A stretch of DNA of 48,452 nucleotides from the IMG/VR virus record IMGVR_UViG_2718218453_000005; one strand, 5' to 3'. The position numbers were made by a program, and so were the translations under genes. Numbering within the stretch: position 1 is the stretch's first letter; the number at the start of each line of letters is the position of its first letter. A model generated the notes under the pieces. It had not been told where the DNA came from. It worked only from the letters and a program-made list of their open reading frames with translations, and made no database searches. Shown here one piece after another: positions 1 through 47,216 of this stretch. The stretch comes from a virus. Its lineage: Duplodnaviria > Heunggongvirae > Uroviricota > Caudoviricetes.

Positions 1-394
1 CACAACATCCGAGGACAGCATCGTCCGCTGGCCCACAGAAGTCCGGAAAGTCATGGAAGGTCGTTGTTGGGAGGAGGTACAAATTCTCTCATGCAAAAAA
101 TACGTAAAATCGATAATAGCTGGAAATAATTCAATACATGCACTCTCGAAAGTGCATCAGCCAACCGCAGAACGTTATTGCATACAACGTTTCTGCGGCA
201 TAATCCCAATGATTACTCCCTGACAGGGTTCGTAGGCCACTCAATATCAGGTGCAGTTGATGTATCAACACGGTTCAGCAACACCCGATACTTTTCCAGA
301 CTTCCAGCAACGAAGTTTCTTCCTCCGTTGCGATTTCCAGCTCAACAACAGTCTGAACGTACCAGGAACAGCCTCCTTCAGGGCTTGAAGGATA

Positions 395-3300
395 TCAATG
401 TTCGCTTCCTGTTAACTGCCCGACAAGTGCAACCAGTTCGCTTACCTGATTTTCCAGAGTGCTGATCCGGGTGCCTGCTGTTGCCAGATTTTCACGTAAC
501 GTTGTATTTTCCTCTTCCAGCGCGGTAACGCGATCATCTGTTTCACGGGCGACCTGAACAAGTAAGCCAGTCACGGCGGCGTAGTCAACATTCAGATAGC
601 GAGTTTCTTCGCGTAGCTCGTTGCCGTCAACGGTCGGACCTTGCAACTCTTCACCATAATGAGTAAACGATCCCACAGCTTCAGGTATCGCCTCCATTAC
701 TTCCTGTGCAATAACGCCAGCATAAGGCATTCCGTTTTCCTTGAGCGTGTAGGTGTATCCGTGCATTTTACGGATTGCTTTCGTCGCGTCGCTGATAACG
801 AGAATATCGTCTTTAAGGTCGCGGTCTGATGACTGATTCAGCGTTGTGCAATTAATAGCGCCATTTACATCAAACAACTGGCCTGCTGACGTTTTTTGCG
901 CATAAAACAGATACGCAGCAGACGTTCCAACCTCAAAAACGTTTTGTCGATCACTTGATCCCCATACTTTTGCGGCAAATGATAGTTCTGTATTACCTAA
1001 GTTCTGTAAAACAAAACGATTTCCAGTCCCTGTTTGTTTTGTAAGAGTTAAATCAACAGTTGAGTTAACCTCATTCTTGTTGATAGTGAGCGCCTGCGCT
1101 GTAGCTCCGTTAACAGCACCTGTTTTGAGTTGAACTGCTCCATCACTGCCATTAAGTAGAATCTCTGCATTACTATGGTAGTTCTTAAGTGACACCATTT
1201 TGCTTTCGCCTGAGTGCATACCTAACACCCACGCAGCGGAACTACCTGTACTGTTAAGGCCGAGAACATAGCATGACATTGCAGAAAAATCTGCAACGCT
1301 ACCAAGTATCTCTACCCTACCTCCACCGGATTTAACTGGTGATGATGTTGTTACTGACTTAACAGAAAGATCGGTTGCTGAATTGAGATCGTCAGCCGTA
1401 AGTAGTTTTTTCCATTCCTGAACCGTTCTGTTTTCAACTGTTCTTCCCCAAAAACCGGAATTGCGGCCTCCGAACTGCACAGCATAATTTTTACTAAATT
1501 GAACATGAATGCCGCCAAGAACCATAGAGCCTGCCGGGCCGTTTGTACTACCTGCGATTGGTCTAAATTTGTCGACGTTATCAGTATGCTGAGCGTTCCA
1601 GTCATGACCTGTTAATGTTGCGATTCCTGAGTTAGCTGTAATTAACCCAGACGCTTTAAGATTTTGCACATCAATTCTGTCGTTTGCGAAATTATATGCA
1701 ATTGCGTTACTAACGCTTCCGGCATCATCATAATCGCGTTTCTGAATAAACCAGTCGCCAGCATTAGCAATGAGAGTATAAGTAGGCGTGTTAGCCGGGC
1801 GATCTGTTTCATTAAATCTTATTGCTGGGTTAGCGCTCCTTATTTGTAAAGGTTTTTCAACCGTGGATTTCAGTATCGCACTATCTACAATTAAATTACC
1901 TTCTGAGGTAAAGTCTAGATATTTTGTAGCACCAGTTGAACCACCGTATGTAAATCTTATTGTTAATCGACCCTGCTCATTTGGAAAAGTCTGAACATAC
2001 ATATCAGCGGCAAGGCGCACAGTGTTGTCATTTGCTAACAGCCTCGTATGGAGCATTCCGCCAGTAGTGTATGCGCCAGTAGAATCACTATATCTATCAA
2101 GAAATAGACTGTTAAGTTGAGGGCTATTATCCCTGCCTAATCCAAGATGCGTTCTGGCACCATCAATAGTTGCCGCGCCAGTGCCACCATGAGAAACATC
2201 AAGCGGTATCCATTCTTTTTGTGTATCGCTGTAACAACCCCATGTTGATCCGGTTAAACCCAGGCGCATGGATTTATCATGGTTATATAACCATGTTTCG
2301 CTATTCCATTGGTCAAGACGGTCCACTTCATTTTTGCGAGCGTGGCGTGTCCATTGCGGGCCTGTTGTCGGACTCCAGCGATAGGTATAAAGCGAGCGAG
2401 TAGTCCATCCCTGAAATACACCTGTATACGCTGGTGTTCCATCTACCTGACTAATAAAACCAGTAAGATTACCTTCGCCTGATGCAATAGACGGAAAACC
2501 TGTTGCGGAAGCAAAAATGCGCATAAAGCCAATATAACCGGATGGATCACCGGAAATATCAGGACAATTGCGCGGTGATGATCCCAAACCGATGTTAGCA
2601 CCAACAATACCCTGAGCATGGTTGCGATAATTAAGTGCGTCCGCCGCAGATTTCGCCGCGTTTGTTTCACTGGATTTAGCATTAGTTTCGCTGGCTTTAG
2701 CGTTGGTTTCGCTGCTCTTTGCTGCTGCCTCGCTATTTTTCGCGTTGGTTTCTGATTTTTTGGCTGCTGTCGCGGAGTTTGCCGATGCAGTTTGTGAGTC
2801 TGCTGCCGCCTGTGCGCTGTTATCCGCATTCGTCTCAGACGTTTTTGCGGCCTTCGCGGAATTTCCTGCCGCCGTTGCCGAGGAAGCTGCACTACTGGCA
2901 CTTGATGATGCGTTCGTTTCTGATGATTTCGCTGCCTCTTTTGAGGCCGCCGCATCCCGGGCTGAGGTGGCAGCTTCTGACGCTTTCGTGGTCGCGGTGG
3001 ATGCAGAAGTGGCTGCAGATTTTTGTGACGCTGCAGCATTCGTTTCTGACGTTTTCGCCGCACCGGCACTGGTAGCCGCCGCGCTTTTTGAGGACTCTGC
3101 AGCGGCAGCACTTTTTTCCGCTTCAGTGGCCTTTGTTGATGCCGTTCCTGCGCTGGAAGACGCCTCCTGAGCCGACGACGCGGCCTGTCCGGCTGACGTG
3201 CTGGCTGCGCGTGCTGAGCCTGCAGCATCAGTCGCATGGGTTGCCGCCTCACGGGCAGATGTGCCGGCATCGCCGGCTGACTTCTTCGCGGCTGCCGTGT

Positions 3301-3667
3301 TCTGTGCCACCGCGGACGCGTTACGCGCCACCTCTTCCACCATCAGTTCAAAACGGCGCAGAGCCTCCGGACGGGCATCATCCTCCGTCATGGCACCGAG
3401 AAAATCATTCAGCGTACCCGGTTGTGAGTCTTCATACACGGTGATGGTCCCGGCATGCGATGGCGGGAAGCCTTCCACCAACAGAATAACGCTGTACTGA
3501 CCGTACTCAACGTCCATGCTGTAACGCCCGGCTTCATCCGGATTTTCTGAGGCCACCGTGTTCGCCACCACCGTGGTGCTGTTACGTTTTGCTTTCAGCT
3601 GGATTGTACAGTTCTGTACCGGTTTACCTGCACCGTCTTTCAGTACACCTGAAATCTTTACTGCCAT
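395..3667 (-). CDS. stf: side tail fibre protein (Stf-like) with C-terminal S74-type intramolecular chaperone domain
   Basis: ORF 395..3673 trimmed to first ATG (MAVKISGVLKDG...) preceded by GGGGTG; N-terminus matches lambda Stf as recalled; central Ala/Ser/Thr-rich SETNA-type repeats; C-terminal ~130 aa has SDRDLK-type start typical of peptidase S74 chaperone domains. Confidence 0.85.
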   Translation of the reverse strand: MAVKISGVLKDGAGKPVQNCTIQLKAKRNSTTVVANTVASENPDEAGRYSMDVEYGQYSVILLVEGFPPSHAGTITVYEDSQPGTLNDFLGAMTEDDARPEALRRFELMVEEVARNASAVAQNTAAAKKSAGDAGTSAREAATHATDAAGSARAASTSAGQAASSAQEASSSAGTASTKATEAEKSAAAAESSKSAAATSAGAAKTSETNAAASQKSAATSASTATTKASEAATSARDAAASKEAAKSSETNASSSASSAASSATAAGNSAKAAKTSETNADNSAQAAADSQTASANSATAAKKSETNAKNSEAAAKSSETNAKASETNAKSSETNAAKSAADALNYRNHAQGIVGANIGLGSSPRNCPDISGDPSGYIGFMRIFASATGFPSIASGEGNLTGFISQVDGTPAYTGVFQGWTTRSLYTYRWSPTTGPQWTRHARKNEVDRLDQWNSETWLYNHDKSMRLGLTGSTWGCYSDTQKEWIPLDVSHGGTGAATIDGARTHLGLGRDNSPQLNSLFLDRYSDSTGAYTTGGMLHTRLLANDNTVRLAADMYVQTFPNEQGRLTIRFTYGGSTGATKYLDFTSEGNLIVDSAILKSTVEKPLQIRSANPAIRFNETDRPANTPTYTLIANAGDWFIQKRDYDDAGSVSNAIAYNFANDRIDVQNLKASGLITANSGIATLTGHDWNAQHTDNVDKFRPIAGSTNGPAGSMVLGGIHVQFSKNYAVQFGGRNSGFWGRTVENRTVQEWKKLLTADDLNSATDLSVKSVTTSSPVKSGGGRVEILGSVADFSAMSCYVLGLNSTGSSAAWVLGMHSGESKMVSLKNYHSNAEILLNGSDGAVQLKTGAVNGATAQALTINKNEVNSTVDLTLTKQTGTGNRFVLQNLGNTELSFAAKVWGSSDRQNVFEVGTSAAYLFYAQKTSAGQLFDVNGAINCTTLNQSSDRDLKDDILVISDATKAIRKMHGYTYTLKENGMPYAGVIAQEVMEAIPEAVGSFTHYGEELQGPTVDGNELREETRYLNVDYAAVTGLLVQVARETDDRVTALEEENTTLRENLATAGTRISTLENQVSELVALVGQLTGSEH

Positions 3668-3675
3668 ATTCACCC

Positions 3676-3705
3676 CACAAAAAAGCCCGCCTGAACCGGC
3701 GGGCT
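3676..3705 (-). terminator. rho-independent terminator downstream of lom
   Basis: hairpin AGCCCGCC/GGCGGGCT with 6-nt loop followed on minus strand by a T6 run; lies between lom stop and stf start. Confidence 0.6.
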
Positions 3706-3731
3706 GTCATAACACTGTGTTACCTGGCTAA

Positions 3732-4331
3732 TCAGAACTTATAACCAACACCCACGATGAAACCGTCAGTGCGCCAGTCGCCACTGCCGGAGCCTTCATA
3801 AGCAATATCAATGGCCACGGATTCGGTCGGGTTAAACTGCACGCCAGCCCCCCACGCCAGAGACGTGTTGCTGTGGCGACCGTCATCACTTCCGGTCAGC
3901 ACGTCGTGCGTTTTCCCCTTGTTGTCAGTTACGCGGAGATAATCCCCGGAGAAAGTCGACACACGGCTGTAAGCCACACCCGCCATCGCATACGCGCTGA
4001 ACCATTCATTCACGCGCACAGACGGCCCCGCCATCACGCTGAACCAGCGGTTACGAACGGAATCTTCATGCCAGCGGGTATCGCTGTAACGGGTCAGCTG
4101 GCGATTCTTGTCTCCTGCATAGCTGAATGAGGTCACCATCCCCAGTGTGTCCGTAAACTCATAACGGTATTTCACGTTAATCCCGTTCAGATCATCGCTG
4201 CCGGGAACGTTCGTCCGGGCATGAAGATACCCCGCGCTCAGCGTGGACTGATGTTCAGACGCCCATGCAGGCGCACCGGATACGGCCAGACAGATGGCTG
4301 CGGACAAAATGGCTGCACAAACTTTACGCAT
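3732..4331 (-). CDS. lom: outer membrane protein Lom (Ail/Lom family)
   Basis: 199 aa, signal peptide, beta-barrel-like alternating pattern, C-terminal F; position between J and stf as in lambda; SD GAGAGG. Confidence 0.85.
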   Translation of the reverse strand: MRKVCAAILSAAICLAVSGAPAWASEHQSTLSAGYLHARTNVPGSDDLNGINVKYRYEFTDTLGMVTSFSYAGDKNRQLTRYSDTRWHEDSVRNRWFSVMAGPSVRVNEWFSAYAMAGVAYSRVSTFSGDYLRVTDNKGKTHDVLTGSDDGRHSNTSLAWGAGVQFNPTESVAIDIAYEGSGSGDWRTDGFIVGVGYKF

Positions 4332-4397
4332 AATTACCTCTCGCTTTTCTGCAATAAAAAAGGCGTCATTTCTGACGCCCGTTCTGGGTTATAAAAT

Positions 4398-7799
<3,402 letters not shown>

Positions 7800-7856
7800 T
7801 CACGCTCCATAAACGACAAAACCGCCCGGAGGCGGTTTCACATAAAACATTTTGCC

Positions 7857-8504
7857 TCAGCGACCAATCACCACAACCTGACCACCGTCCCCTTCGTCTG
7901 CCGTGCTGATCTCCTGAGAAGCCACCCGCGACCCCACGCGCATTTCACCGTACAGAACAGGCAGAACATTGCCCTGGGCAACCATGTTATCCAGTGAGGA
8001 GAAATAGGTGTTCTGCTTACCGTTATCCGTTGTCTGTGTACGGGGAGTTCTGGCTTTCGGTGCCAGCATCTGCGCCACACCGCCAAGGATCATACTGGCC
8101 CCCGCAGCATACATGCCCGATAAAGCCGCAGCTCCCAGCCAGCCTGCAGGGTTCCACCACGCCACTGCAATCAGCGCCGCACCCAGCACCGCCTGAAACA
8201 CACCGCCACTTTTTGCTCCCGCAAGACGCGGAACGATGTGGATCACGGCACCATTTTTCAACGGCTCATTAAGACGGGCTGATAATTCGTTTTCGCCTGC
8301 ATCACGCCCGGCAATGCGCACCTGATACCAGCCCTCATTCAGTTTCTGACGAAACGCCGGGAGCTGTGTGACCAGTGCCCGGATGGCTTCAGCCCCCGTT
8401 TTCACACGAAGGTCGATGCGGCGGCCAAATCGTTGCAAATCCCCGTAAAGGCAGATGCGTGCCATGCCCGGTGACGCCAGAGGGAGTGTGTGCGTCGCTG
8501 CCAT
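7857..8504 (-). CDS. I: tail tip assembly protein I
   Basis: 215 aa; MAATHTLPLASPGMARICLYGDLQRF and C-terminal ...VSQEISTADEGDGGQVVVIGR match lambda I; ATG start; overlaps K by 103 nt as in lambda. Confidence 0.85.
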   Translation of the reverse strand: MAATHTLPLASPGMARICLYGDLQRFGRRIDLRVKTGAEAIRALVTQLPAFRQKLNEGWYQVRIAGRDAGENELSARLNEPLKNGAVIHIVPRLAGAKSGGVFQAVLGAALIAVAWWNPAGWLGAAALSGMYAAGASMILGGVAQMLAPKARTPRTQTTDNGKQNTYFSSLDNMVAQGNVLPVLYGEMRVGSRVASQEISTADEGDGGQVVVIGR

Positions 8505-9145
8505 TTGTCGGTGTACCTCTCTCGTTTACTCAGTTGTTCAGGAATATGGTGCAGCAGCTCGCCGTCGCCACAGTAAATGGCGGCATGATTCGGCACCGAT
8601 GAACCAAAACAGCACAGCAGCACGTCGCCAGGCTGCGCCTCTGTCAGTGGGACACGGTAAAAACCCGTTGCCTCCATATTGTCAAGATAGAGATTCTGGC
8701 CGTGACGCCACCAGTCATCCCCGCGATGAAAATCCGGCATCTCAATTCCTGCCAGATGGTAAGCGTCCCGGAACAGCGTGTAACAGTCCGTCACCCCGTG
8801 CTCAAAGCGCCGCCCGGTGAGATGCGGCACACAGAGGAATTTATGAATCGCCCCCCGGCAGACCAGCCACCACGGCAAATCACTCTGCACCTGCAGCCGC
8901 CGGTCGGCCTCACTCAGCCAGGGCAGACCACCGGGGTGGCTGTGGACCAGCGCCACAATCTCTCCCTGCATTTCTGCACTCAGCCAGTCCTCCGGCGACA
9001 TCCGGAAATACTCCTCCGGCTCACCGGAGATATTCACGCAGGGAAAATATCTTTCTCCCTCCGGCGTTCTCACCACGAAGCCGCACGACTCTGCTGGCGC
9101 ACATCGCCGGGCGTGCGCCAGAATCGCTGATTCTGTCTCTGTCAT
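8402..9145 (-). CDS. K: tail tip assembly protein K (JAB/MPN plus NlpC/P60-like)
   Basis: 247 aa ORF from ATG; HSHPGG...SEAD JAB-type metal site and C-terminal Cys/His region; lambda K-like. Confidence 0.85.
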   Translation of the reverse strand: MTETESAILAHARRCAPAESCGFVVRTPEGERYFPCVNISGEPEEYFRMSPEDWLSAEMQGEIVALVHSHPGGLPWLSEADRRLQVQSDLPWWLVCRGAIHKFLCVPHLTGRRFEHGVTDCYTLFRDAYHLAGIEMPDFHRGDDWWRHGQNLYLDNMEATGFYRVPLTEAQPGDVLLCCFGSSVPNHAAIYCGDGELLHHIPEQLSKRERYTDKWQRRTHSLWRHRAWHASAFTGICNDLAAASTFV

Positions 9146-9150
9146 GGGAT

Positions 9151-9849
9151 TTACTGCGAAAGTTTGTTAATGGAAAGGAAGCCGCCAAAGTTGCCGACGT
9201 TATTGCGAAACTTACAGCCGCTCAGGCATTTGCTGCATTTATCCTTCGTGATATCGGACGTCGGCTGGTCATATTCATCCGCGACAGCCGGACCGTGATA
9301 ACCGCACTCATCACCGCGATAGGTCCAGGTGCAGGTATTAGCCAGCATGATGCGCCCCGGAAAAACGGCACCATCCGTTTCCGTCGGTGTGGAGAGCACA
9401 AAGGAGGCACTGACCGCGCTCAGTTCGCTGCACTGCTCGATGCGCCAGCGGCTGATCACCTCCTGCTCCGGATCGGCGTCACTGTTTCCGTTGACGAAGT
9501 TCACCGCATCCAGAAAACGGGCGTAAACCTTACGCCGGACCACCGTTCCGCCGACCAGACTCTGCAGATCTTCCGCCATCCCGGTGATCATGCCGTGCAG
9601 GTTAGAGACCGTCAGTGTCGGACGGGCAGCACTGCCCTTGCCGTTCATCTCAAATCCACTCCCCTGAATGGGATAGGCCTGATACTGCCGACTCTGCCAG
9701 GTGACAGACTCACCTTTTTCGTTCTGCTCATTACAGAAAAAGTAGCGATCCCCGCCTACCTCGGTCAGGTCGATTTCCCAGAGCACCACGCTGGCCGACT
9801 GCTCCGCACGAATGCATTCATTCAGCGTTTCCTGTTGTATGTCCTGCAT
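9151..9849 (-). CDS. L: minor tail protein L
   Basis: 232 aa, [28 protein letters not shown]... and C-terminal CSKCLSGCKFRNNVGNFGGFLSINKLSQ as lambda L. Confidence 0.9.
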   Translation of the reverse strand: MQDIQQETLNECIRAEQSASVVLWEIDLTEVGGDRYFFCNEQNEKGESVTWQSRQYQAYPIQGSGFEMNGKGSAARPTLTVSNLHGMITGMAEDLQSLVGGTVVRRKVYARFLDAVNFVNGNSDADPEQEVISRWRIEQCSELSAVSASFVLSTPTETDGAVFPGRIMLANTCTWTYRGDECGYHGPAVADEYDQPTSDITKDKCSKCLSGCKFRNNVGNFGGFLSINKLSQ

Positions 9850-10187
9850 CAGATTACCACTTCGTCAAACTGACACGAAAAATCGGTATAGGTGATATGT
9901 TCTGTCGCTGACCACGTTCGACACACCACTCTGATTTTTCTGTTAATACCCGGCGGGCGCCAAAAAAAAGATTTATAGCCTTCATGCCGGGCTAAAAATT
10001 TTTCAAATGAATCACGTTCATTCGCCTCAACTTTGAAATCACAGGTGAAAACGCGCAGAGAATGATTAAGTCCATTTGGACTTCGTTGCTCATAACCATC
10101 GCCAAATCTTACAGTTTTTATCGATGGTTTATTTTCTGTTTTCATTCCATCCTCTGGTAACCAGTGAAATTCTTCCGTATTAGCCAC
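9849..10187 (-). CDS. M: minor tail protein M
   Basis: 112 aa; [12 protein letters not shown]... and C-terminal FDEVV resemble lambda M; position between tape measure and L. Confidence 0.8.
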
Positions 10188-13100
10188 TTAACATTCCCCC
10201 ATCACGTCGCATATTTAACAGATTGCCCTGCACCCGCTGATCAACCATCCCCATAAGTGCTTTTATTGCCTGAGGGCCAATCTCTCCATTCTGGCCGTCA
10301 TTTTGAATAGTGATTTGGTATACAGGGGCATAGGTAATATCTCCGCCTCCATTACCACTTTTACTATTAATAGCTCTGACACCAAGAGAACCATCGGAAG
10401 TTCGTGTTAATGGCATAATGGCTTCCGGACCAGCCTCACCAAAAACACCAGCCCCTCTTGCAAAAGCAAAAAATTGCGGGGAATCATAAATACCGTTCGA
10501 ATACGTGTTCAATGACGGAGACTCATAAACACCGCCCTTTGCATTCGGAATAAATTTACTAATAGCACTCCCGATAGTTCCTAAAATCCCCCCAGAAGAA
10601 CTGTTACTAATGCTGTCGAAAATCCCAGTAATTGAAGCCTTTAATGCTATTCGACTAAGATCCGAAATCACGGAAGTAGCGAAAGAACGAAAATTTGCCT
10701 TGCCTGTCGTGACAAAATCACCCAGCGCATCGGTCATTCCATCAAACATCTGAGTCGTGGTTGATTTTATCTGCTCACTGATATCCTTAGTGTCATCCAG
10801 CCAGTTATTGAATCCCTGGGAGGCACCACTAACCCAGTCTCCTGCCTGAATATCGAGCTGCTCGTTTTTCTGTCTGACAATTTCTTTTTCTCGTTCCAGA
10901 GCATCATTCAGAGCCTGCATTTTCTCCTGAAAAACATGATTTGACATCCCACGGGATTTATCTGCATAGTCACGTTCAAGTTGCAGACGCTGATTGTTAT
11001 ATTCACGTTCAATCCGCAGTAATTCCTGCTGGCGTTGCTGATTTTTATCGCCAACCCCATAACCAGCAATCTGAATATCATACCCCTGTTGACGATTATC
11101 AATCGAAGCCTGCAATGAATCACGCCATGCAGCTATTTCGGCGGATTCCTTGATTAGCCTGTTATTTTTTTCAATCGCAACATTTTTCTCCATCAACGCG
11201 GTTATTTCTTCCCGGTGTAAGAGAAGCGATTTCTGATCCTGGGTTAATTTCGATGACGGTCGTGACTCCAGGTCGGCAATCTGCTGACGCCACTTAACCA
11301 GTTCCTGTTCAGAGGAACTTAATTTAACGGTTAATTCAGTTTGTGAACTTAGTAACGCATTCTGTTGATTCAGATGATCAATCATTCGTTGGGCAGCATC
11401 ATCCGAATAACCTTTCGCCTTTGGTTGCTTTGGATCTTTATAACGTTCATTTATTTGAGCGATAAAATTATTATATTCTTCCTTTGAATACTGACTCTTT
11501 AGCTTTTCCAGTTTTGCAAGTTCACTAGCTCTCTGCTGCTCCCGGGTCTGATATTGTTTTGAAAAGGCATCTGCTCTCTGTCTGAGTTCAATTCCTTCCT
11601 GTTGTCGCTTGTTGTAATCGTTTATTGATGAATTTAGGACGTCCTGAGCAATTTTTTCTGCTTGAAGTACGCCCAATTGCTGCTTTAATCGTGCCAGCCT
11701 TTTATTTTGAGCTCCGCCATCTCCAATGCCACCTAACCCGAAAACTCCGGGTCGGGTATTTTTTTCTATTTCATCAATTTGACGGAGAACATCTGAGATT
11801 TTTTGATCAAGGGAGGCCTCACGGCCAATATCCAGCATGGAATCCCATGCCCATTTTGCGGAGTCTGCGACAGCTTTCCATGCAGTCTCAAGATAACCAA
11901 GATTTTCTTTAATCTGGTTGGTGCGCTGGATCATTGAGGATGAGTATGCTTCTGTCGCAATGCGGGCGGCCTCCTGCTGGTTCCCTTCATCCTGTAGCGC
12001 CTTAATCTGGTTATAAGTCGCAATTGTCAGAAAATGGTACTGATCATTAAGTTTTGATATGGCACTGACAGGATCCTTTGCAATTTCATTGAAGTCATTA
12101 ACCAGTTGTTCGGTTGATATTCCTGTTACTTCGCTCGTTTTTACTATCGCTGTCGTCACTTGCTCCAGCGAACTGCTCGCTACCTTTCCCGAACGCACAA
12201 GCTGGTTTAATACTGCCGCCGCAGCGCCAGTTGTCGAATCAGCCGCATTCCCGGCACGTTGAGCTATATCGGCCAATTGCCCGCTGGTTGTCCCCAACTG
12301 ATTTCCGGTAAGAATAAGAGATTTATTAAATTCGTCCTGCTCCTGAGAGCCTTTATAGTAAGCCAGCCCTAAGACGCCAACGGCTGCTGCGGCCAGGGTA
12401 AAAGGATTAATTAATCCCAGCACATAAGAACCAACACCTTTGATCGCCGGGCCAATCCCACCGAACATATCTTTTAGCTGGCCGCCCTGCTGCATTAACA
12501 CCATAAAAGGCGACTGACCAGTGGACAACCCAACAACAATATCCGTCATTTGTGCAGGCAACATGCGCATAGCAAAAGCCGTTTGTTTTGCCGACATTCC
12601 GGTTTTGCTTAATTGAGATTGAGTAACCTCAAGCTCACTCCGCATAGCACGAAGTTTTCCAGAAAGTTCCTCATACATTTCAGGAGAGAGCATCCCCTTA
12701 GCTTTTGCTTCATTGAGCTGTTTCTGTTGTTCTACCAGACGATTAAAAGCAGTTCCGACAGGGTCAAGTTGAGCAATCAGACGTTGCAAAGCAGCAACCT
12801 GTTCATCATGCGCTTTTGCTGCTTCTCGCTCTGCCTGAGCCTCTCCGGTAAGCTCTCGCCGTGTTTCCTGTATTTTTCGGCTATAATTCTCAAACTGAGA
12901 ACCATTTATTTTCCCGGATGCAAACGCAGCATTAAGTTCATCCTGCTGTTGTTCAAGATTTCTTAGCGCCGCAGCCAGAGGGTCGATCTTGTCCAGCATT
13001 CTTTGAAAGGCCTGAGCCTGCGCTTCCTGCTGGGCGGCAGCAAGTTTTCCGGCCTTCTCGGCTTCTCTCTGCGCTTGCGCAACCCCGCTCAATTCCTCTG

Positions 13101-13413
13101 TGGTTTCATTAAGTTTACGGACAAGAAATTCATATTCTTCTTTATCAATAAGCCCTTTATCGAAAAATTTCTTTAATTCAGAATAGCGTCGACCGACAGT
13201 ATCAATTGCGGCACCAACTGGATCAATAGCTGCTTTTAATTTTGCGAGCGCGTTCTTCTCATCTTCTGTTGCCTTGGTCACTTTCCCTGCGCTATTTGCA
13301 GCAGTTTCCCCGGCCTGCGTCATTTTGACTAATGAGGAGGTCAGATTGTCAGCATTATTTTTTGCTCCAGTGCTATCAATAATTATTGCGAGACGCGAGG
13401 TTTGCTCTGCCAT
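10180..13413 (-). CDS. tail tape measure protein
   Basis: 1077 aa, highly alpha-helical/coiled-coil, Gly-rich hydrophobic segment, located between GT chaperone and M; SD GGAG before ATG. Confidence 0.85.
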
Positions 13414-13425
13414 TTATTAAAACTC

Positions 13426-13452
13426 CAGACAACAAAAAGCCCACCGAAGTGG
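13426..13452 (-). terminator. terminator-like hairpin upstream of tape measure gene
   Basis: minus strand reads CCCAC-TTCG-GTGGG followed by CTTTTTGTT in the 164-nt gap between GT stop and tape-measure start. Confidence 0.35.
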
Positions 13453-13576
13453 GTTTCAGGCGACATAATAGTAGATATAGCGATTACGAGGCCACGCAAT
13501 GCTTTTCTCCAGGAGCATCATCGATTTAATTAAAGACACCATCACATCTCTGTAACAGAGTGTACGTAATTAACAA

Positions 13577-14346
13577 CTACACACACTGATCCTGAAAATA
13601 CTGGTCATCCAGTGCAAAGATCACTGCTTCAAACTCATCGCGCTCAATCAATACCGGATGAGTGGCTAAATATTCATTTATCTCTGTCAGAGATAAAGGC
13701 AAAGGCACCCCGGTCATTCCAGCATAACGTCGGGCACGGGATATTACCGAATAGGCGTACAACAATTCCTTAAGCACCGGGTCTATTTCTGGTTCCGGTA
13801 TCGGTGGCAACCTGAGTTTTTCTCGCTTCCATCTTGCCTTTTCCCCCCTTTCTCCCCCGAACTCCGATAACCACCGCTGGGCGGCTATGGCTTTTTTATC
13901 GTATCCTGCTTCTGCTGCTCTTTACCCTGGGCGATGCTGGCTGCTTCTGCAAGGATCTGCCAGTACAACTCTGGATTCTGCTTAAGCAGCGCGATCCCTC
14001 GTTCTGGCGTATATTCCAGTGCAACCTCAGCACCATTAACCAGTTCACCAACCCCTTTCCAGTCTTTCAGCAGATAACGAGCAGCATTATCAATGAGTAA
14101 ATCATCAACAGAATCTACCTCGGAAACCTTTGAAATATCAAACTCCTTCGTTCCGACGTGCAAACTGGCATCCATTTTCTCAATGTGACGACGGATTAAT
14201 GCATTACGGGAGCGATACTGATCGTTATCGCTGCTTGCCACCAACAGTTTTAACCCGTCTACAGGTTTTAAGTCCTTCATTGGCGTAAACCAGCGTTCTC
14301 CACCGATGATAATTTTCTGATTAAGAATAAACATACATAACCTCAT
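13577..14346 (-). CDS. tail assembly chaperone GT (predicted -1 frameshift fusion product)
   Basis: -1 frame is open from the slippery site at the end of G through ORF 13577..13810; arrangement identical to lambda G/GT. Confidence 0.6.
13885..14346 (-). CDS. tail assembly chaperone G
   Basis: 153 aa acidic protein immediately upstream of tape measure; alternative ATG at 14334 with GAGG SD. Confidence 0.75.
   Translation of the reverse strand: MRLCMFILNQKIIIGGERWFTPMKDLKPVDGLKLLVASSDNDQYRSRNALIRRHIEKMDASLHVGTKEFDISKVSEVDSVDDLLIDNAARYLLKDWKGVGELVNGAEVALEYTPERGIALLKQNPELYWQILAEAASIAQGKEQQKQDTIKKP
13891..13897 (-). other. programmed -1 ribosomal frameshift slippery heptamer A_AAA_AAG
   Basis: minus strand reads ATA AAA AAG CCA TAG at the end of G; canonical dnaX-type heptamer two codons before the G stop. 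Confidence 0.6.
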
Positions 14347-14394
14347 TCAATGCGTCCCCCTGTAGTGCAGTACCACAGGGGGAATAACGGAAAA

Positions 14395-15357
14395 TCAACT
14401 AATCGCATCAGCACTGGCTTTTGCGATCACGGCAGTTGGGGAGCATTTTTTTCTGGTTATCGTAGGTGCTTCATCTGCTGCGGTAATGCTCAATTGAACC
14501 TGGATAATGTCGCTATTACCCCCATCAGGCCATTCACCTGACACCTGAACCTTCGGGAAACTGAAAGTGTATGCCCCCTCTCCATTCGAAAGCGTGAAGC
14601 TGAACGGAACTGTTTCTCCAGTCAGTGTTTTACTCCAGATTTCCCACGCGGCTTTAGACCATGAAAGCGTCACCGTACCGGACGGTGTAAAAGTAGTCGG
14701 AATATTTGCTCCTGCATAAGGCGAGCCAGTCCCGATACAACGCTGTGTCTGGAGTTTGTTATCGAACTGAATATCAAAACTGTCGATACAAAAACCGTTA
14801 CCTCCGGCAACACCATTCAGGCTTACTGCTGAAACCTCCTTAAACGAATAACGTAGCTTTCCTGCACTATCCACAGGTTCGCCTTTGATAAAATTCGTAT
14901 CATCGGCCTTTGATTCCCAGTCCAGTCCGGCAAAGGTTACGGTCGCTGTAATATCGCCGTCGTTAGGGATCTGCATTTTCCATGAGCCAACCTGCGCTCC
15001 TCTGACGACAGAGGCAATTCCGACATCGGACGCATAGGTCGCCAGAGAAAATGTTATTCGCTCATTCCCCATTGTCAGAGAATCGCCTGACCATTCCGCG
15101 CCGAAACAGGATGCAAGAAAATCATCATGTTGACCCCAGCGAAATTTGGTACCAACATCACCGCCGACATCCACAGTGCCAGGCGTCGCCCCCTGAGCCA
15201 TCCGGGAGCCACCAATCTCATTATTTTCGCCTTTATTCTGGGTGAGTTTTACTCCCCAGCTTGTGCGTTTTAATAAACTCCAGTCACCACTTGCTGGCGT
15301 AGTGCCTGCAACCGTCTCCCGGATAAATGCCGAGATAACCTTTGCACCTGAACTCAC
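14395..15357 (-). CDS. major tail tube protein
   Basis: 320 aa, position upstream of G/GT, Gly/Thr/Ser-rich beta-type composition. Confidence 0.7.
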   Translation of the reverse strand: MSSGAKVISAFIRETVAGTTPASGDWSLLKRTSWGVKLTQNKGENNEIGGSRMAQGATPGTVDVGGDVGTKFRWGQHDDFLASCFGAEWSGDSLTMGNERITFSLATYASDVGIASVVRGAQVGSWKMQIPNDGDITATVTFAGLDWESKADDTNFIKGEPVDSAGKLRYSFKEVSAVSLNGVAGGNGFCIDSFDIQFDNKLQTQRCIGTGSPYAGANIPTTFTPSGTVTLSWSKAAWEIWSKTLTGETVPFSFTLSNGEGAYTFSFPKVQVSGEWPDGGNSDIIQVQLSITAADEAPTITRKKCSPTAVIAKASADAIS

Positions 15358-15383
15358 AGGAGCCTCCTATGTCATTAATTGCG

Positions 15384-15776
15384 CTAGAGCGCGCGATATG
15401 GAATTTGAAGATTAAGCTGGAACCAGCCATTCTTTTCGCCGACGGCTATTGAGGAAACAGCCTGGTAACTGAGACGATCGTCATCCTGAAACTCAAACAG
15501 TTCCCGCAATTTATCGGCTGTCTCAGTAATGAGTTTTGAACCAGAACCTGCGGGGACAAATAACTGAATAATGATTATCCCCGTGCGATAAACAACCGGC
15601 CCCGCGCCAATTTCATTAACTCCAGCCTGCCCGGGAATATTACTTAACCGCGCCCAGATTAACTTACCGGAAGGATCGAACGTTGGCCCGTTCGGATACA
15701 ATACGTCTTTTCCATCAATAATCGTCTGTGCCGTCATTCTGGAAATAACCGTATTTCTGATTTCAGTAAACTTCAT
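15384..15776 (-). CDS. tail terminator protein (lambda U-like)
   Basis: 130 aa, N-terminus MKFTEIRNTV resembles lambda U MKHTELRAAV; position before tail tube gene. Confidence 0.55.
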   Translation of the reverse strand: MKFTEIRNTVISRMTAQTIIDGKDVLYPNGPTFDPSGKLIWARLSNIPGQAGVNEIGAGPVVYRTGIIIIQLFVPAGSGSKLITETADKLRELFEFQDDDRLSYQAVSSIAVGEKNGWFQLNLQIPYRAL

Positions 15777-16153
15777 TTGTAAGCCTGTAAAACACCATGA
15801 AAAGCGTTGGCATACACGCCAGTTGGCGCTTGTTGTGAATGACCGTTTTCAAGAGCCTCTGCATAAGGAAGGTTATTCTGGATATAAATAACCCCGTAAT
15901 TTGCAGCTTTCGAAATAACCCCGATCCCACGCTGAACAGCAATCGTACCGTTCGGATCCACGTTATCAGATATACCAAAATCGGGATGCTGTAACGACAC
16001 CAGGTTGTTATTTCTGAAACGTCCGGTATCAACCGGAGCAGCAATATCAATAGCAGTAAGAATCTGCATAGCGATGTAGCGAATCTTCAGCCCTACATCT
16101 TCCTCAATCATCCCGGCAAATATTGACGGTTCTATATCCCATGCCTTTGCCAT
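15773..16153 (-). CDS. tail completion protein (Z / HK97 gp10-like)
   Basis: 126 aa, 4-nt overlap with downstream gene, position equivalent to lambda Z. Confidence 0.55.
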   Translation of the reverse strand: MAKAWDIEPSIFAGMIEEDVGLKIRYIAMQILTAIDIAAPVDTGRFRNNNLVSLQHPDFGISDNVDPNGTIAVQRGIGVISKAANYGVIYIQNNLPYAEALENGHSQQAPTGVYANAFHGVLQAYK

Positions 16154-16537
16154 TTACGCTCTCCTTAACTGGATAGAGTAAACTGATGCGGAAGGATCTA
16201 CACTTGCTGTAATTACCTCGTATCGTTGTAACTGCCTTGATACAGGATCATAAATCTCAATAATATGGTCGACAGCTGGTTTATCCGTAACCTCGCATAC
16301 CAGAGCGGTTAATTTAAGGTCACCATGCAAAATATTAATCCCATCAATTCTGCCCAGCTTATAACGTGTCAACACGCCTCGCCCGGTATAGATTGCGGTG
16401 GATTCGCCGCCAGTTTCCGTCACAGGATCCCAGTGCCGGTGCGTAACGTAAGAACCAGAAAAATCACTCACGGCGTCCGCTAAATCCTCATCAAAAGCAG
16501 CGGCAACCTCTGACTGAATCTCTTCACGAAGCCCCAT
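16154..16537 (-). CDS. head-tail joining protein (FII-like position)
   Basis: 127 aa ORF tightly packed in head-tail connector block. Confidence 0.5.
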   Translation of the reverse strand: MGLREEIQSEVAAAFDEDLADAVSDFSGSYVTHRHWDPVTETGGESTAIYTGRGVLTRYKLGRIDGINILHGDLKLTALVCEVTDKPAVDHIIEIYDPVSRQLQRYEVITASVDPSASVYSIQLRRA

Positions 16538-16932
16538 TATCCCCCCCTCACAACCCTGACTTGTGAGCGACTAAGTCCGTACGGTTTCAGCAGTGCTATC
16601 GCAAGCTGTAAATCGGGTTCAAGCAATGCAGTGCTGTTTGCTGGCAACTCAGAAAATGATTTCGATACACTGACCCCATCAGCCGACACGGCTTTACTGA
16701 TAACAACGCCAGAATCATTTTTCTGCTGAAACAACTTACCGAATGAGGCAATTCTGGCTGCATATGCTCCCGCAAGTTTTACCTCTTCCGGAATACGGGA
16801 TGGGTTAATTTTCAGGTTGAAGCCATTAAGCCAGGCATTAGCCATTAAAACAGCTTTATTTTTAGCGTTCTCACTCGTCCAGGCGTTCCCAAACGCATTA
16901 TCAACGTCATCACAGGTCACGTAAGTGATCAT
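16537..16932 (-). CDS. head-tail connector / adaptor protein
   Basis: 131 aa, CAGGAG SD, start overlaps stop of upstream small ORF. Confidence 0.5.
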   Translation of the reverse strand: MITYVTCDDVDNAFGNAWTSENAKNKAVLMANAWLNGFNLKINPSRIPEEVKLAGAYAARIASFGKLFQQKNDSGVVISKAVSADGVSVSKSFSELPANSTALLEPDLQLAIALLKPYGLSRSQVRVVRGG

Positions 16933-16935
16933 GTG

Positions 16936-17112
16936 TTACTCCTGAGTTTTCCAGCCCATAGCCTTCCAGTTGTCAACTTCATCAGGATGAACATTAGCGA
17001 TAGTTGGTGCGCCGGGAAACATCTGATAATCGGTCACCATAACCACTAACTCAATTTGCGTTTTTTGTGCGGCTTCACGCTGTGCTCTTTGCTCTTTAGT
17101 TAATCCGGCCAT
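16936..17112 (-). CDS. small hypothetical protein (58 aa) between capsid and connector genes
   Basis: my translation MAGLTKEQRAQREAAQKTQIELVVMVTDYQMFPGAPTIANVHPDEVDNWKAMGWKTQE; G-rich SD; stop 3 nt before next ATG; below ORF-track size cutoff. Confidence 0.45.
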   Translation of the reverse strand: MAGLTKEQRAQREAAQKTQIELVVMVTDYQMFPGAPTIANVHPDEVDNWKAMGWKTQE

Positions 17113-17119
17113 ATGCCCC

Positions 17120-17144
17120 CCATTAAAAATGGGGCCGAAGCCCC
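17120..17144 (-). terminator. rho-independent terminator after major capsid gene
   Basis: minus strand GGGGC-TTCG-GCCCC followed by ATTTTTAAT, 10 nt downstream of capsid stop. Confidence 0.6.
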
Positions 17145-17154
17145 GTTTGAATGT

Positions 17155-18294
17155 TTAACCAAGAATCAGACAACCATGTGCCGGCTTCACTGATGAAACA
17201 CCCCATGCCAGTCCAACTTCATAGCGCACCTGGCGATACTGACGATACAGTGCAATCTGGAACGTAATCCCTGAAATCGGGTCCGTAACATTCATTACAT
17301 CATCAGCATTATCGCCACCTTCCGGCATTGCCGGAGTACGGGATGCCAGCAGAAACGCGTTGCGATCAAACGCCATATTTGCAGTAAAGGCCCCAACAAC
17401 TGTGATGGCAGTATCATCGGCCAGATCCTGACGCAGTCCGGGCGCTGCAAGAGTAATCAGATTGCTGGTCGCTGCTGCCACAACATACTGATTCGGATCA
17501 CCAGCGAACGTAACAATCTGACCTGCAGAAATACTCCCCGAACCAGTATCAATGGAAATAAGAACATCGCCTTCTTTTTTCTCTCCATTCACGAGATAAC
17601 CAGTTGCAGCAACCTTTGGCGCTCGTTTCACACCTGCCGAACTGTGAATATTGAATCCCTCCAGACGCCCCAACACGCCCTCACGCAGTAGCTGTTCAGT
17701 GCCGGATTCATTCACTTTAAACAATACAGACTGTTTTCCGCGCAAATTAGCAATGGCAGTGGAGCCAAGCACCATCTGCAGATCGGTTGTCGGTGCGCCG
17801 TTATCCTCCAGAACCTGACGAGCCAGAGCAGCATCAGAAAGATCATCTTTAACACCAAACGGCGTTGTCCCTGCGGTTCCCACGGCGCGGGAAGCACCGA
17901 AATACAACGCACCAAGATCAGCCTCAACCTCGTTTGCAAGGGCGCGAAAAGCCTGCTTGAACTGATCAGCCAGAATGGTGTTGTAAGTCCCTGAAGGGCC
18001 AAGAGCCAGTTGTTCTTCACCATTCCATTTAACCGGTGCCATTTTGGATTTAGTAATTTTTACATCAACAGTGCCAATATTTTGATCACCGGTATTCGGA
18101 GCTGACGGCCCCGGTACGATATCTTCGGTTTTCGCCTCAGGCGCAACTGGCGCGGTTACCGTCTGATCTTTTGCTGCGGCGTCAGCTTTTGCGTTTTTTG
18201 CTACCGCAGGGATAAAACCTACCTGCTCACGGGATACAACATCCAGGGCGGTATAAATAGTCGGGATCAACCCGGTCAGGGTATTTCCAGCCAT
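17155..18294 (-). CDS. major capsid protein
   Basis: ORF 17155..18387 trimmed to first ATG (MAGNTLTGL...); upstream M is TTG; follows scaffold gene; terminator after it. Confidence 0.8.
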   Translation of the reverse strand: MAGNTLTGLIPTIYTALDVVSREQVGFIPAVAKNAKADAAAKDQTVTAPVAPEAKTEDIVPGPSAPNTGDQNIGTVDVKITKSKMAPVKWNGEEQLALGPSGTYNTILADQFKQAFRALANEVEADLGALYFGASRAVGTAGTTPFGVKDDLSDAALARQVLEDNGAPTTDLQMVLGSTAIANLRGKQSVLFKVNESGTEQLLREGVLGRLEGFNIHSSAGVKRAPKVAATGYLVNGEKKEGDVLISIDTGSGSISAGQIVTFAGDPNQYVVAAATSNLITLAAPGLRQDLADDTAITVVGAFTANMAFDRNAFLLASRTPAMPEGGDNADDVMNVTDPISGITFQIALYRQYRQVRYEVGLAWGVSSVKPAHGCLILG

Positions 18295-18392
18295 AATTAA
18301 ATATTCCTTAAAAATTTGCGTAATTGTGAATAGATGGAGTAATGAGCTATCCAGCCCTGACACCAGCTCCCATCCGGAAGCTGACAAATGTG

Positions 18393-19157
18393 TTAATCAA
18401 CGATTGTGATACCGTCTTTCAATGCGTTTTGCTTACCTGCAACATCCAGTGCATCAAAAGCAGAGCGTTTCATCGTTTTCTGACCAATATCATGCTGTGT
18501 CGGACGGGAGCCGCCGCCATTGTTGCCACTGGCTTTCAGGATGTAGTCTTTCTGAGGGTAATTTTCGACAAGGAACTCCAGCGCCTCATCAAACTGCGCC
18601 AGTTCGCCAGGCTTCGCGCGGGAATAAATTTTGTTGCCGGAAGCGTCATAAGCAACGATCCTCCCTTCTTCCACTTTGAATGCCTGCCCGAAGCGGGCTT
18701 GTAATAAATCTGCCGGGATCGCAATTTTATCGGCAATATATTTTGAACCCGCAAAACTACCGCCAATCATAGAATCGTAAAGCTGCTTCTCCAGCATCTG
18801 AGAGCGTTGCTTTTCTTCATCTAATTGCTGCTGAAAATTTTTCGTAATTTCTGCCTTAACCTGGTCAACCTGTCCCGCATCGAGCAGCTTTTTCTGGTCG
18901 ATTTTTGACAGCATTTCCAGTGCCTCGATCGCCTTCTTCGGGTCTTCGATAGCGGCAAACTTAGCCAGTTTTTCCTCTGCAGCTTCTTTAGCCAGGCGAT
19001 GATTTTTTGCCTCGCCATTAAGCTCTGTAATTTTTTTTGTCGCCAGCGGTGCATCGAAGCCAATTTCTTTACCATCGTCGTGCACATAAACTGGCAGGCC
19101 AGCAGTATCAATTTCTGCGTATTGTTTTCCGTTAATCTCGACCGTTTTCAGTTTCAT
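18393..19157 (-). CDS. head scaffolding protein
   Basis: trimmed to ATG at MKLKTVEINGK...; acidic, coiled-coil-rich; upstream part of ORF contains a terminator hairpin so cannot be coding. Confidence 0.7.
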   Translation of the reverse strand: MKLKTVEINGKQYAEIDTAGLPVYVHDDGKEIGFDAPLATKKITELNGEAKNHRLAKEAAEEKLAKFAAIEDPKKAIEALEMLSKIDQKKLLDAGQVDQVKAEITKNFQQQLDEEKQRSQMLEKQLYDSMIGGSFAGSKYIADKIAIPADLLQARFGQAFKVEEGRIVAYDASGNKIYSRAKPGELAQFDEALEFLVENYPQKDYILKASGNNGGGSRPTQHDIGQKTMKRSAFDALDVAGKQNALKDGITIVD

Positions 19158-19214
19158 ATTAGTACCTGGTTTAAGTCTTCCGACAGTAACGCTGCTCACC
19201 ATCCGGATCGCAGC

Positions 19215-19241
19215 AATAAAAAAGGCCACCCGAAGGTAGCC
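19215..19241 (-). terminator. rho-independent terminator after head morphogenesis gene
   Basis: minus strand GGCTACC-TTCG-GGTGGCC followed by TTTTTTATT. Confidence 0.55.
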
Positions 19242-19261
19242 TGTTGTAATAAATGATTTAT

Positions 19262-21764: not shown

Positions 21765-21766
21765 AA

Positions 21767-24143: not shown

Positions 24144-24146
24144 CAG

Positions 24147-24398
24147 TTAGTCCTGATTTTTATCCACCCTGAGTAGTTCGCGCAGAGCAAAGGCATCCCC
24201 TTTTCTGGCAAGCTTAAACAATGCCGCTCGTAACTCGGCTTCACCTTTCGCTCTGCCCTTACGGATGGCCGCATAAAAATCTGTCATTGCTTCCCGATTT
24301 TCTTTCAGTCGGTTCAGATCAACATCCAGAACGTCAGCGATTTGTTGTGCAGTCATCCGGCACGCTGCCAGAGACTCGACTTTCGAATACGGAATCAT
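24147..24398 (-). CDS. small HTH-like protein upstream of terminase
   Basis: 83 aa, ATG with GGGGTGA SD; overlaps 3' end of upstream gene by 65 nt. Confidence 0.4.
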   Translation of the reverse strand: MIPYSKVESLAACRMTAQQIADVLDVDLNRLKENREAMTDFYAAIRKGRAKGEAELRAALFKLARKGDAFALRELLRVDKNQD

Positions 24399-26050: not shown

Positions 26051-26066
26051 ACAGCCTTGCTTTATG

Positions 26067-26101
26067 AATAAAACGCACCCCAGCAGCCAGTGCTACTGGG
26101 G
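26067..26101 (-). terminator. terminator-like hairpin downstream of trkG
   Basis: minus strand CCCCAG-12nt loop-CTGGGG followed by TGCGTTTTATT. Confidence 0.4.
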
Positions 26102-28720: not shown

Positions 28721-28723
28721 TAA

Positions 28724-47215: not shown

Positions 47216-47216
47216 T

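Follow-up and report, generated by a model that had tools for sequence, protein, structure and literature searches.

A lambda-like side tail fibre ending in a predicted S74 chaperone in a Rac-type lambdoid prophage

Introduction

The side tail fibre gene of Ur-lambda is followed by an intact tail fibre assembly gene, tfa. How could a lambda-type side fibre be built at a locus where such a gene is missing? This question is raised by the stretch of 48,452 nucleotides analysed here (the window), in which the side tail fibre gene stf lies near one end. We suggest, as the very probable answer, that a lambda-like collar and coiled-coil shaft are combined with a beta-rich tip, that the Peptidase_S74 chaperone of this tip replaces Tfa and that the distal part came in as a cassette.

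Results and discussion

The stf gene and its prophage

The gene has the following surroundings.

395..3667, minus strand: stf, complete side tail fibre gene, from the list of open reading frames (1090 aa, stop codon at 395-397)
3684..3705, minus strand: terminator-like hairpin in the gap between lom and stf, from a consensus scan (a stem of 8 bp, 7 of them GC pairs, followed by a run of T)
3732..4331, minus strand: lom, upstream of stf
4398..7796, minus strand: J, upstream of stf

This stf belongs to a Rac-type lambdoid prophage of Escherichia coli which is of full length. The prophage is complete from intR to stf, with genes for integration, regulation, replication, lysis, head and tail all present, and stf is located after J and lom, as expected for a lambda-type Stf. 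RefSeq/PGAP annotates the span 395..3667 alike (CDS WP_073545344.1 in the 100% identical genome NZ_CM131229.1), and tail-fibre families in PHROG match the product. Translation from the ATG yields 1090 aa; a GTG at 3673, two codons upstream, would yield 1092 aa.

An intact-looking gene may still be an unused relic, as in laboratory lambda PaPa, either because no side fibres are made or because the prophage is not inducible; its S74 module would then be without a present role. The terminator-like hairpin ahead of stf would fit such a state, and Rac of E. coli K-12 is a defective prophage. Moreover, lambda does not need side fibres for plaque formation (PMC12617516). Nevertheless, the 1090 codons are uninterrupted and 99.9-100% identical across five genomes from unrelated sources, the gene set of the prophage is full and the catalytic residues of the fibre are intact. 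The isolated phages mEp460, PhiR70_1 and Ayreon carry this type of fibre, and mEp460 has the same arrangement before stf, with a terminator annotated at the equivalent site. Late transcription, antiterminated by Q, presumably reads through the hairpin. We therefore consider an unused stf quite improbable.

A lambda-type collar and a heptad shaft

The N-terminal part of the protein is divided as follows.

3395..3667, minus strand: N-terminal collar (tail-attachment) domain, aa 1-91, from PF08400 and 9e7m matches, with limits after Ur-lambda Stf (PMC12617516)
3365..3394, minus strand: putative flexible linker, aa 92-101, from the limits in PMC12617516 and the gap-free lambda alignment
2630..3364, minus strand: proximal coiled-coil shaft, aa 102-346, about 35 unbroken heptads S-x-x-x-A-x-x, from autocorrelation, heptad counts and the 21-nt periodicity of the DNA

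It had been proposed that the first 250 residues or so follow lambda Stf, and this is borne out by the Pfam match, by the alignment with lambda and by the place of the gene after J and lom. The Pfam family PF08400 (phage_tail_N) matches aa 1-134 over the full model (239.7 bits against a cut-off of 26.6, E = 1e-71), and aa 1-94 align with few substitutions to the solved lambda-type Stf collar (chain 9e7m_Ta, E = 3e-51). The similarity to lambda Stf (orf-401) extends without gaps over aa 1-284 at 87% identity and thus covers the collar, the linker and most of the heptad shaft. Ur-lambda Stf has been assigned a collar (1-91), a linker (92-101) and a trimeric coiled coil (102-393), and four of its trimers form a dodecameric collar on the tail (PMC12617516). 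By homology with Ur-lambda, three chains would make up each fibre here, and the collar would dock at the junction of tail tube and tail tip.

The shaft had been described as a SETNA-type array of imperfect repeats. The repeats are indeed imperfect and rich in Ala, Ser and Thr (37% Ala, 21% Ser and 11% Thr within aa 116-345, together 69%), but an uninterrupted coiled coil of heptads describes the segment better than a tandem SETNA repeat does. Identity autocorrelation over aa 116-345 peaks at lags 7, 14, 21, 28 and 35 (z = 7-11, 2000 shuffles), with z of about 10 at lag 7. In the heptads over aa 116-346, Ser occupies the first position in 28 of 33 and Ala the fifth in 31 of 33. All seven copies of SETNA (at aa 207, 249, 277, 305, 319, 326 and 333) fall into one heptad register. 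A long coiled-coil shaft of 33-35 heptads after the collar, most of it aligned with the 87% identical segment of lambda, is what a lambda-type Stf should have. By this homology the SETNA array is the proximal coiled coil described for Ur-lambda Stf, and like the latter it is probably trimeric. We suggest that in the trimer aa 102-346 would wind into a long coiled-coil shaft of about 36 nm, its core made of Ser and Ala.

Might there be no structured coiled coil at all, the array being a low-complexity linker without order or an artefact of its composition? The composition is extreme, and classical coiled-coil cores use hydrophobic residues larger than Ser and Ala. However, the register stays strict for more than 230 residues, two core positions are conserved in it, and the natural indels respect it (see below). 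The homologous segment of lambda is a rigid proximal rod by cryo-ET and has been modelled as a trimeric coiled coil (PMC12617516), and weak sequence matches of stf fall on the alpha-helical shaft of T7 gp17. We give a disordered linker next to no credence and retain the coiled coil. Antisense and alternative-frame open reading frames over the shaft were rejected as artefacts of composition.

The heptads are also visible in the DNA. The match fraction at lag 21 is 0.46 compared with 0.24 at lags 20 and 22 and with 0.27 elsewhere in the gene. Of the two motifs that the initial annotation had named for this periodicity only GTTTC qualifies, with six copies, all in one phase of the 21-nt period and 5.5 times as dense as in the window as a whole; GCTGG is found in just three copies which are not periodic. 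Strictly tandem repeats are short (2.4 copies of 21 nt at 2664-2714 by TRF), and dispersed repeat copies are spaced by 21, 42, 84, 126 and 210 nt.

Such an array was expected to be a site of length variation, and the relatives agree with this. Shaft lengths were compared with a composition-based boundary and explicit alignment. Where the flanks agree, relatives depart from this shaft by indels of 7, 14 and 98 aa, all of them whole heptads and in register, and lambda has 7 aa more. Several of these length variants are partial proteins from short draft contigs and some of the indels are possibly assembly artefacts in repetitive DNA; the hits of the N-terminal and mid-protein homologue searches are mainly truncated proteins from draft contigs. 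The whole-heptad indels suggest that natural variation of shaft length is possible among the relatives. In-register unequal recombination or slippage between the heptad repeats of the DNA could change the length by whole heptads and leave the coiled coil unbroken, and such variation may have a function.

A chaperone domain at the C-terminus

Two features are located at the 3′ end of the gene.

398..829, minus strand: intramolecular chaperone (Peptidase_S74), aa 947-1090, with the predicted scissile bond at S946|S947
812..829, minus strand: codons of the Ser/Lys dyad, S947-D-R-D-L-K952, from the translation (SSDRDLK is aa 946-952)

The claim that the fibre ends in an S74 intramolecular chaperone holds on three grounds, the Pfam match, the conserved Ser/Asp/Lys motif and the predicted fold. 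The HMM search that had been named as a check returned PF13884 at aa 947-998 with 48.7 bits against a cut-off of 22 (E = 9e-13). The domain comprises the last 144 of the 1090 residues and thus the extreme C-terminus of the fibre. Among 66 diverse homologues the S-D-x-x-x-K dyad motif is nearly invariant (S947 in 65, D948 and K952 in all 66), and the spacing of S947 and K952 equals that of Ser1264 and Lys1269 in T5 pb1 (PMC4690869). The conservation of the motif suggests that the fibre cleaves itself.

The predicted fold matches four solved IMC/ICA structures, those of MyRF, GA-1, T5 pb1 and K1F, and the model has the small alpha/beta lobe, the long beta-hairpin and the long C-terminal helix of these domains. 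The TM-scores are low (0.15-0.3) because monomers were modelled of a protein which folds as an intertwined trimer; for the distal modules the models are of only moderate quality. No confident counterpart of the Arg/Asp "folding sensor" described for T5 pb1 emerged in this protein; R907 and E912 are conserved among the homologues, at a distance to the Ser which differs from that of the T5 pb1 sensor.

The relatives of this domain serve rather different proteins. T5 pb1 shares about 9% identity in the structural alignment and differs in its separate collar protein, its shaft and its "bullet" tip; its cleavage has been demonstrated experimentally, whereas cleavage is predicted here. The chaperones of the K1F endosialidase (3GW6) and the GA-1 neck appendage (3GUD) are the founding members of Peptidase_S74 and serve enzymatic tailspikes and appendages of podoviruses, whereas the present fibre, non-enzymatic by Pfam, belongs to a lambdoid siphovirus. 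For the ICA domain of MyRF (7DC3), a eukaryotic membrane-bound transcription factor, the homology is limited to the domain.

We suggest that folding proceeds in these steps. The S74 domain would trimerise via its long helix and the beta-hairpin "tentacles" and would act as a template on which the triple beta structure ahead of it folds. In a correctly formed trimer, Lys952 would then activate Ser947, which could cut S946|S947. Finally, the cleaved chaperone would be released, which would expose the tip.

A relic of tfa downstream of stf

~213..357, minus strand: tfa relic, ~48 codons from the 3′ end of a lambda-type tail fibre assembly gene, with homology to intact tfa starting at ~357

No intact tfa, that is no open reading frame of about 190 aa, was found in the 394 nt 3′ of stf. 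The earlier statement that a recognisable tfa is lacking there is correct as to a functional gene, but a recognisable 3′ relic of about 48 codons is present. Two frames of the relic, separated by a 1-nt frameshift in an A run, align with the C-terminus of lambda Tfa; a start codon is missing. PGAP annotates a pseudogene at 213..346 ("frameshifted; missing N-terminus"). Its missing start codon, the frameshift and this annotation led us to reject the relic as a small functional open reading frame. The relic is consistent with the point made initially that a Tfa-type chaperone is missing, and a fibre tip which bears its own self-cleaving chaperone would not need a separate assembly gene.

The fibre could still need a Tfa-type chaperone which another resident prophage provides in trans, with the S74 domain as no more than an accessory trimerisation tag. 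A tfa relic does adjoin stf, and tfa-like sequence is present in 4551 of the 5426 complete E. coli genomes, as a rule in about two places each, so that a source in trans would usually be available. Against this, mEp460 and PhiR70_1 have this fibre but no tfa anywhere in their genomes, and the chaperone domain suffices for folding in the systems that have been solved (PMC4690869). Furthermore, nothing beyond about aa 284 is similar to lambda, and therefore the tip does not resemble the gp37-like tip of lambda that depends on Tfa. In our view dependence on a foreign Tfa is highly unlikely, and we maintain that the S74 domain very probably takes the place of Tfa.

The distal part as a mosaic

Between shaft and chaperone we distinguish three modules.

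2138..2629, minus strand: first distal module, aa 347-510, from 94% identity, as far as aa 510, to mEp460 and PhiR70_1
1634..2137, minus strand: second distal module, aa 511-678, from pairwise BLASTP breakpoints
830..1633, minus strand: third distal module, predicted mature tip and receptor-binding end, aa 679-946, from the BLASTP mosaic

In Ur-lambda (Stf/Tfa encoded by orf-401, orf-314 and orf-194; 9e7m; PMC12617516) a gp37-like distal part binds OmpC, and the intact 194-aa tfa comes next, whereas unrelated beta modules and the S74 domain are found here. Since lambda-like sequence stops at about aa 284 and only a relic of tfa is left, the protein is a lambda-type Stf in its proximal third only.

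Much closer are two phage proteins which share the lambda-type N-terminus, the equal shaft length, the S74 C-terminus and the lack of a tfa gene downstream. Stf of mEp460 (AFM76057, 1202 aa) is 94% identical over aa 1-510 and 81% over aa 669-1090, and carries a different, longer segment in the place of aa 511-668. Stf of PhiR70_1 (XSB43585, 830 aa) is 94% identical over aa 1-678 and 90% over aa 936-1090 and has no counterpart of aa 679-935. Thus the second module is common to PhiR70_1, where it directly precedes the chaperone, and is replaced by another sequence in mEp460; the third is common to mEp460 and absent from PhiR70_1.

The first module has a small beta domain at about aa 365-445 (AF2 pLDDT ~90) and ends in a GGTGA...LGL motif. 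Its relatives are named "pyocin knob domain-containing". For the second module the confidence is moderate (mean pLDDT 66.6 for the AF2 model of aa 346-700). The model of the third is beta-rich (pLDDT ~60-90), with weak fold matches to the fibre tips of pyocin, T5 and T7. The fold hits of aa 346-700 to the Bdellovibrio Bd2133 fibre, the phi812 baseplate fibre and T4 gp34 were set aside as generic; they identify no receptor. A Pfam search with the middle 601 residues of Stf gave no match at E values up to 10, and the distal modules are thus without a curated family; an NCBIfam scan of the whole protein gave no match either. We suggest that aa 347-946 form beta-rich distal modules which end in a receptor-binding tip. 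The distal part would have been gained as a cassette whose right-hand crossover fell within the 3′ end of a former tfa and left the frameshifted relic of 48 codons.

The module that is the terminal, chaperone-adjacent tip in PhiR70_1 (aa 511-678) is internal here. For this reason one may ask whether the distal part consists of two stacked tip modules, aa 511-678 and aa 679-946, each competent alone, a reading which we regard as unlikely. If the internal module keeps its binding site, two receptors could be recognised in series, and the heptad-quantised shaft length could then tune the reach to different layers of surface glycans. Fibres with two receptor-binding domains are reportedly present in some BASEL phages, to which such a stacked-tip fibre may be likened.

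Occurrence

The architecture is already known, as the protein is named in RefSeq and the architecture is an existing PGAP category. Our literature search found no paper specifically on a lambda-type Stf carrying S74. As a discovery the fibre has little weight, with hundreds of E. coli genomes and isolated phages sharing its architecture; the S74 end together with the tfa relic is present in 800 of the 5426 complete E. coli genomes. It is rather a clean natural example of how lambdoid phages may swap host-range cassettes at conserved joints. The joints here are the GGTGA...LGL motif (aa 493-510), the strand that leads up to the cleavage site, and tfa at its 3′ end. Since no matching Tfa would be needed, fibres that bring their own chaperone could also be handy for the engineering of lambda-based delivery particles.

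The stf gene and its C-terminal chaperone

The side tail fibre gene stf follows J and lom:

395..3667 (-): stf, uninterrupted, 1090 codons from the ATG
3684..3705 (-): strong terminator-like hairpin in the lom/stf gap
3732..4331: lom, preceding stf
4361..4380 (-): strong terminator-like hairpin in the J/lom gap
4398..7796: J, the central fibre gene, preceding stf

A GTG at 3673, two codons upstream of the ATG, is an alternative start which would add two residues. The gene layout is alike in mEp460, where terminators are annotated at the same two sites. Because of the terminator-like hairpins ahead of it, stf presumably depends for its expression on antiterminated late transcription.

PGAP places a coding sequence (protein accession WP_073545344.1) at exactly 395..3667 in an identical genome and already describes it in the terms of the initial annotation, which therefore equals the existing database reading. 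Such genes are common in E. coli prophages and are found in isolated phages; stf belongs to an established gene type and is itself a known example of it. Our analysis supports this interpretation with two refinements. The shaft is better described as a heptad coiled coil, and a relic of tfa, the gene for the separate tail fibre assembly chaperone, is present.

The Peptidase_S74 tail proposed initially is borne out by a Pfam match at aa 947-998 with 48.7 bits (cut-off 22). The motif SSDRDLK occupies aa 946-952. We aligned 66 homologues, with identities to the query down to 24%, drawn from an exhaustive search with 2056 representatives at E < 1e-3. Asp948 and Lys952 are conserved in 66/66 and Ser947 in 65/66. 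Phage T5 pb1 has the same Ser/Lys dyad with i, i+5 spacing. There the catalytic pair is Ser1264 and Lys1269, the cut falls between Thr1263 and Ser1264, cleavage is abolished by S1264A, and the receptor-binding tip is masked by the chaperone until release (PMC4690869).

For aa 669-1090, AlphaFold2 gives a model with a mean pLDDT of 81 and values >90 across most of the chaperone. The modelled chaperone has a small alpha/beta lobe and two extended elements: aa 998-1027 form a long beta-hairpin, and aa 1029-1087 a terminal helix of 59 residues. Hairpin and helix have counterparts in the tentacle and central-helix elements of pb1. The top Foldseek match is 3GW6, the K1F endosialidase chaperone (probability 1.00), and a profile search of PDB sequences also matches 6F45 and MyRF. 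Since sequence, motif, predicted fold and position all agree, we assign the domain to the S74/intramolecular chaperone family. The predicted cleavage products are a 946-residue mature fibre and a freed chaperone of 144 residues.

A relic of tfa downstream of stf

The initial annotation recognised no tfa downstream of stf. A functional tfa is indeed missing, but a recognisable relic of about 48 codons is present:

about 357 to 213 (-): tfa relic, encoding 17 residues and then 26 residues in a shifted frame

The relic matches the C-terminal ~48 residues of lambda Tfa, and a single A missing from an A run causes the frameshift. PGAP labels it a tfa pseudogene, frameshifted and N-terminally truncated. 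As the relic is unable to make the chaperone, the functional point, an S74 tail without tfa, holds. The records of mEp460 and PhiR70_1 contain no annotated tfa gene downstream of stf, and in mEp460 the downstream DNA is common across the relic. The relic is the trace of a past exchange: an S74-type distal cassette took the place of an earlier unit of tip and tfa, and the right-hand crossover lay inside the tfa 3' end.

The 3' end of the chaperone together with the relic (200..860, -) is found at a coverage of at least 80% in 800/5426 complete E. coli genomes. Taken by itself, the relic gives tfa-like matches in 4551 of these 5426 genomes, mostly to annotated tail fiber assembly genes. The conservation of the chaperone end with the relic suggests that crossovers which exchange fibre cassettes recur at the tfa 3' end.

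Collar and shaft

The N-terminus is lambda-like, as first proposed: Pfam phage_tail_N matches aa 1-134 (E 1e-71), aa 1-94 align to 9e7m, a solved collar chain of lambda-type Stf (E 3e-51), and aa 1-284 show 87% identity to lambda orf-401 in a gap-free alignment, with no similarity past aa 284. For Ur-lambda Stf, cryo-EM/ET assigned residues 1-91 to the collar domain, 92-101 to a flexible linker and 102-393 to a proximal trimeric coiled coil, followed by a hinge and the distal part; the collar sits at the gpV/gpM junction, where four fibres contribute twelve chains (PMC12617516). By homology, this domain plan and collar assembly should carry over to the proximal third of the Stf studied here.

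The Ala/Ser/Thr-rich periodic array described initially is present (aa 116-345: 37% Ala, 21% Ser, 11% Thr). Its identity autocorrelation peaks sharply at lags 7, 14, 21, 28 and 35 and at no others; relative to 2000 shuffles, these peaks have z = 7-11. In heptad rows Ser occupies position 1 in 28/33 and Ala position 5 in 31/33, the register runs unslipped from about aa 102 to 346, and all seven SETNA copies fall into this single register. The unbroken 7-residue register rules out a tandem repeat of a 10-residue unit. Judged from its sequence, the array is an uninterrupted coiled coil of about 35 heptads, whose core is made of the small residues Ser and Ala, and at 0.148 nm per residue the shaft would be about 36 nm long.

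The periodicity is also visible in the DNA. The lag-21 match fraction of the array is 0.46; at lags 20 and 22 it falls to 0.24, and the remaining gene gives 0.27. All six copies of GTTTC (antisense of Glu-Thr codons) share one 21-nt phase, whereas the gctgg element, also proposed as periodic, showed no periodicity. Strict tandem 21-nt units occur only at 2664-2714; the remaining copies are scattered at spacings that are multiples of 21 nt. Two further reading frames overlie the shaft, an antisense one of 155 aa (2703..3170, +) and another of 275 aa in a different frame (2443..3270, -). We reject both as genes and regard them as by-products of the Ala/Ser-rich periodic coding sequence. The counterpart of the antisense frame is annotated in the lambda record as 'orf206b hypothetical protein'.

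Recombinational length variation of the array, suspected from the outset, is supported by an alignment of close relatives with the same flanks. Relative to Stf here, the homologues P0013 and P0012 lack 7 and 14 shaft residues, P0064 and P0113 lack 98 each, and the lambda shaft is 7 residues longer; several of these variants come from short draft contigs and are partial proteins, and some indels could therefore be assembly errors. All indels are whole heptads placed between near-identical repeat segments (e.g. TSAREAA / TSARDAA), which supports the view that length changes keep the coiled-coil register.

Exchangeable distal modules

In the numbering of the Stf studied here, identity to mEp460 Stf (1202 aa) is 94% for aa 1-510 and 81% for aa 669-1090, and the segments between are unrelated. 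Identity to PhiR70_1 Stf (830 aa) is 94% for aa 1-678, after which the match resumes directly at the chaperone (90% for aa 936-1090). One breakpoint follows a GGTGA...LGL motif (aa 493-510); the other is a recurring strand, ...DVxNxKASGxxTA/C or ...DVNGAINC, which normally stands ahead of the cleavage site. Because the breakpoints lie at shared joints, the fibres are combinations of exchangeable modules, and the terminal tip module of PhiR70_1 is an internal module here.

Pfam and NCBIfam hold no family for the distal modules. A search with aa 346-700 yielded just 94 homologues, of which one is a Shigella entry and almost all the others come from E. coli; the label "pyocin knob domain-containing" is attached to some. 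The AlphaFold2 model of this region is of moderate confidence and its fold matches are generic fibre proteins; these family and fold searches did not identify the receptor. That the stacked modules confer two receptor specificities is a mildly novel possibility, and an unlikely one.

Homologues of the distal module with the chaperone (398..1663, -) also occur in many E. coli proteins of 619-709 aa (e.g. P0128 and P0184), which are without phage_tail_N and bear the names 'tail fiber domain-containing protein' or 'pyocin knob domain-containing S74 family peptidase'. Should these proteins be full-length, fibres with a different N-terminal attachment would have the cassette too.

Proposed assembly

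We suggest the following steps. Three chains would trimerise, as judged from lambda Stf, T5 pb1 and the K1F endosialidase endoNF. By analogy with characterised homologues, the C-terminal chaperone would then nucleate folding of the beta-structured tip, after which Ser947/Lys952 would cut at S946|S947, releasing the chaperone and exposing the tip. The collar would dock the fibre on the tail, and the fibre could speed reversible adsorption.

The prophage

Several E. coli strains have a chromosomal segment that is 100% identical to the entire window. The segment in strain 1-62 is a Rac-type prophage of full length, integrated beside ttcA and carrying intR, xisR, recET, ralR, kilR, sieB, a repressor/cro pair, replication genes, a lysis cassette, trkG and terminase, portal, capsid and tail genes, with stf last. 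Directly past window position 1, beyond stf, the host genome continues with sitABCD. Landmarks are:

26188..27663 (-): trkG
43066..45666 (+): recE
47217..48452 (+): intR

The window (1..48452) is a complete 48-kb Rac-type lambdoid prophage with head, tail and lysis modules all present. Rac of K-12, a defective element of 23 kb, also carries recET, ralR, kilR, sieB and trkG; the prophage here has the full head, tail and lysis modules in addition. Its early region includes a 1210-aa reading frame (33696..37328, -), which the annotation of the identical genome names a YobI-family P-loop NTPase. With a GC content of about 0.30-0.34, far under that of the remainder of the prophage, it resembles a moron gained by horizontal transfer and possibly involved in defence.
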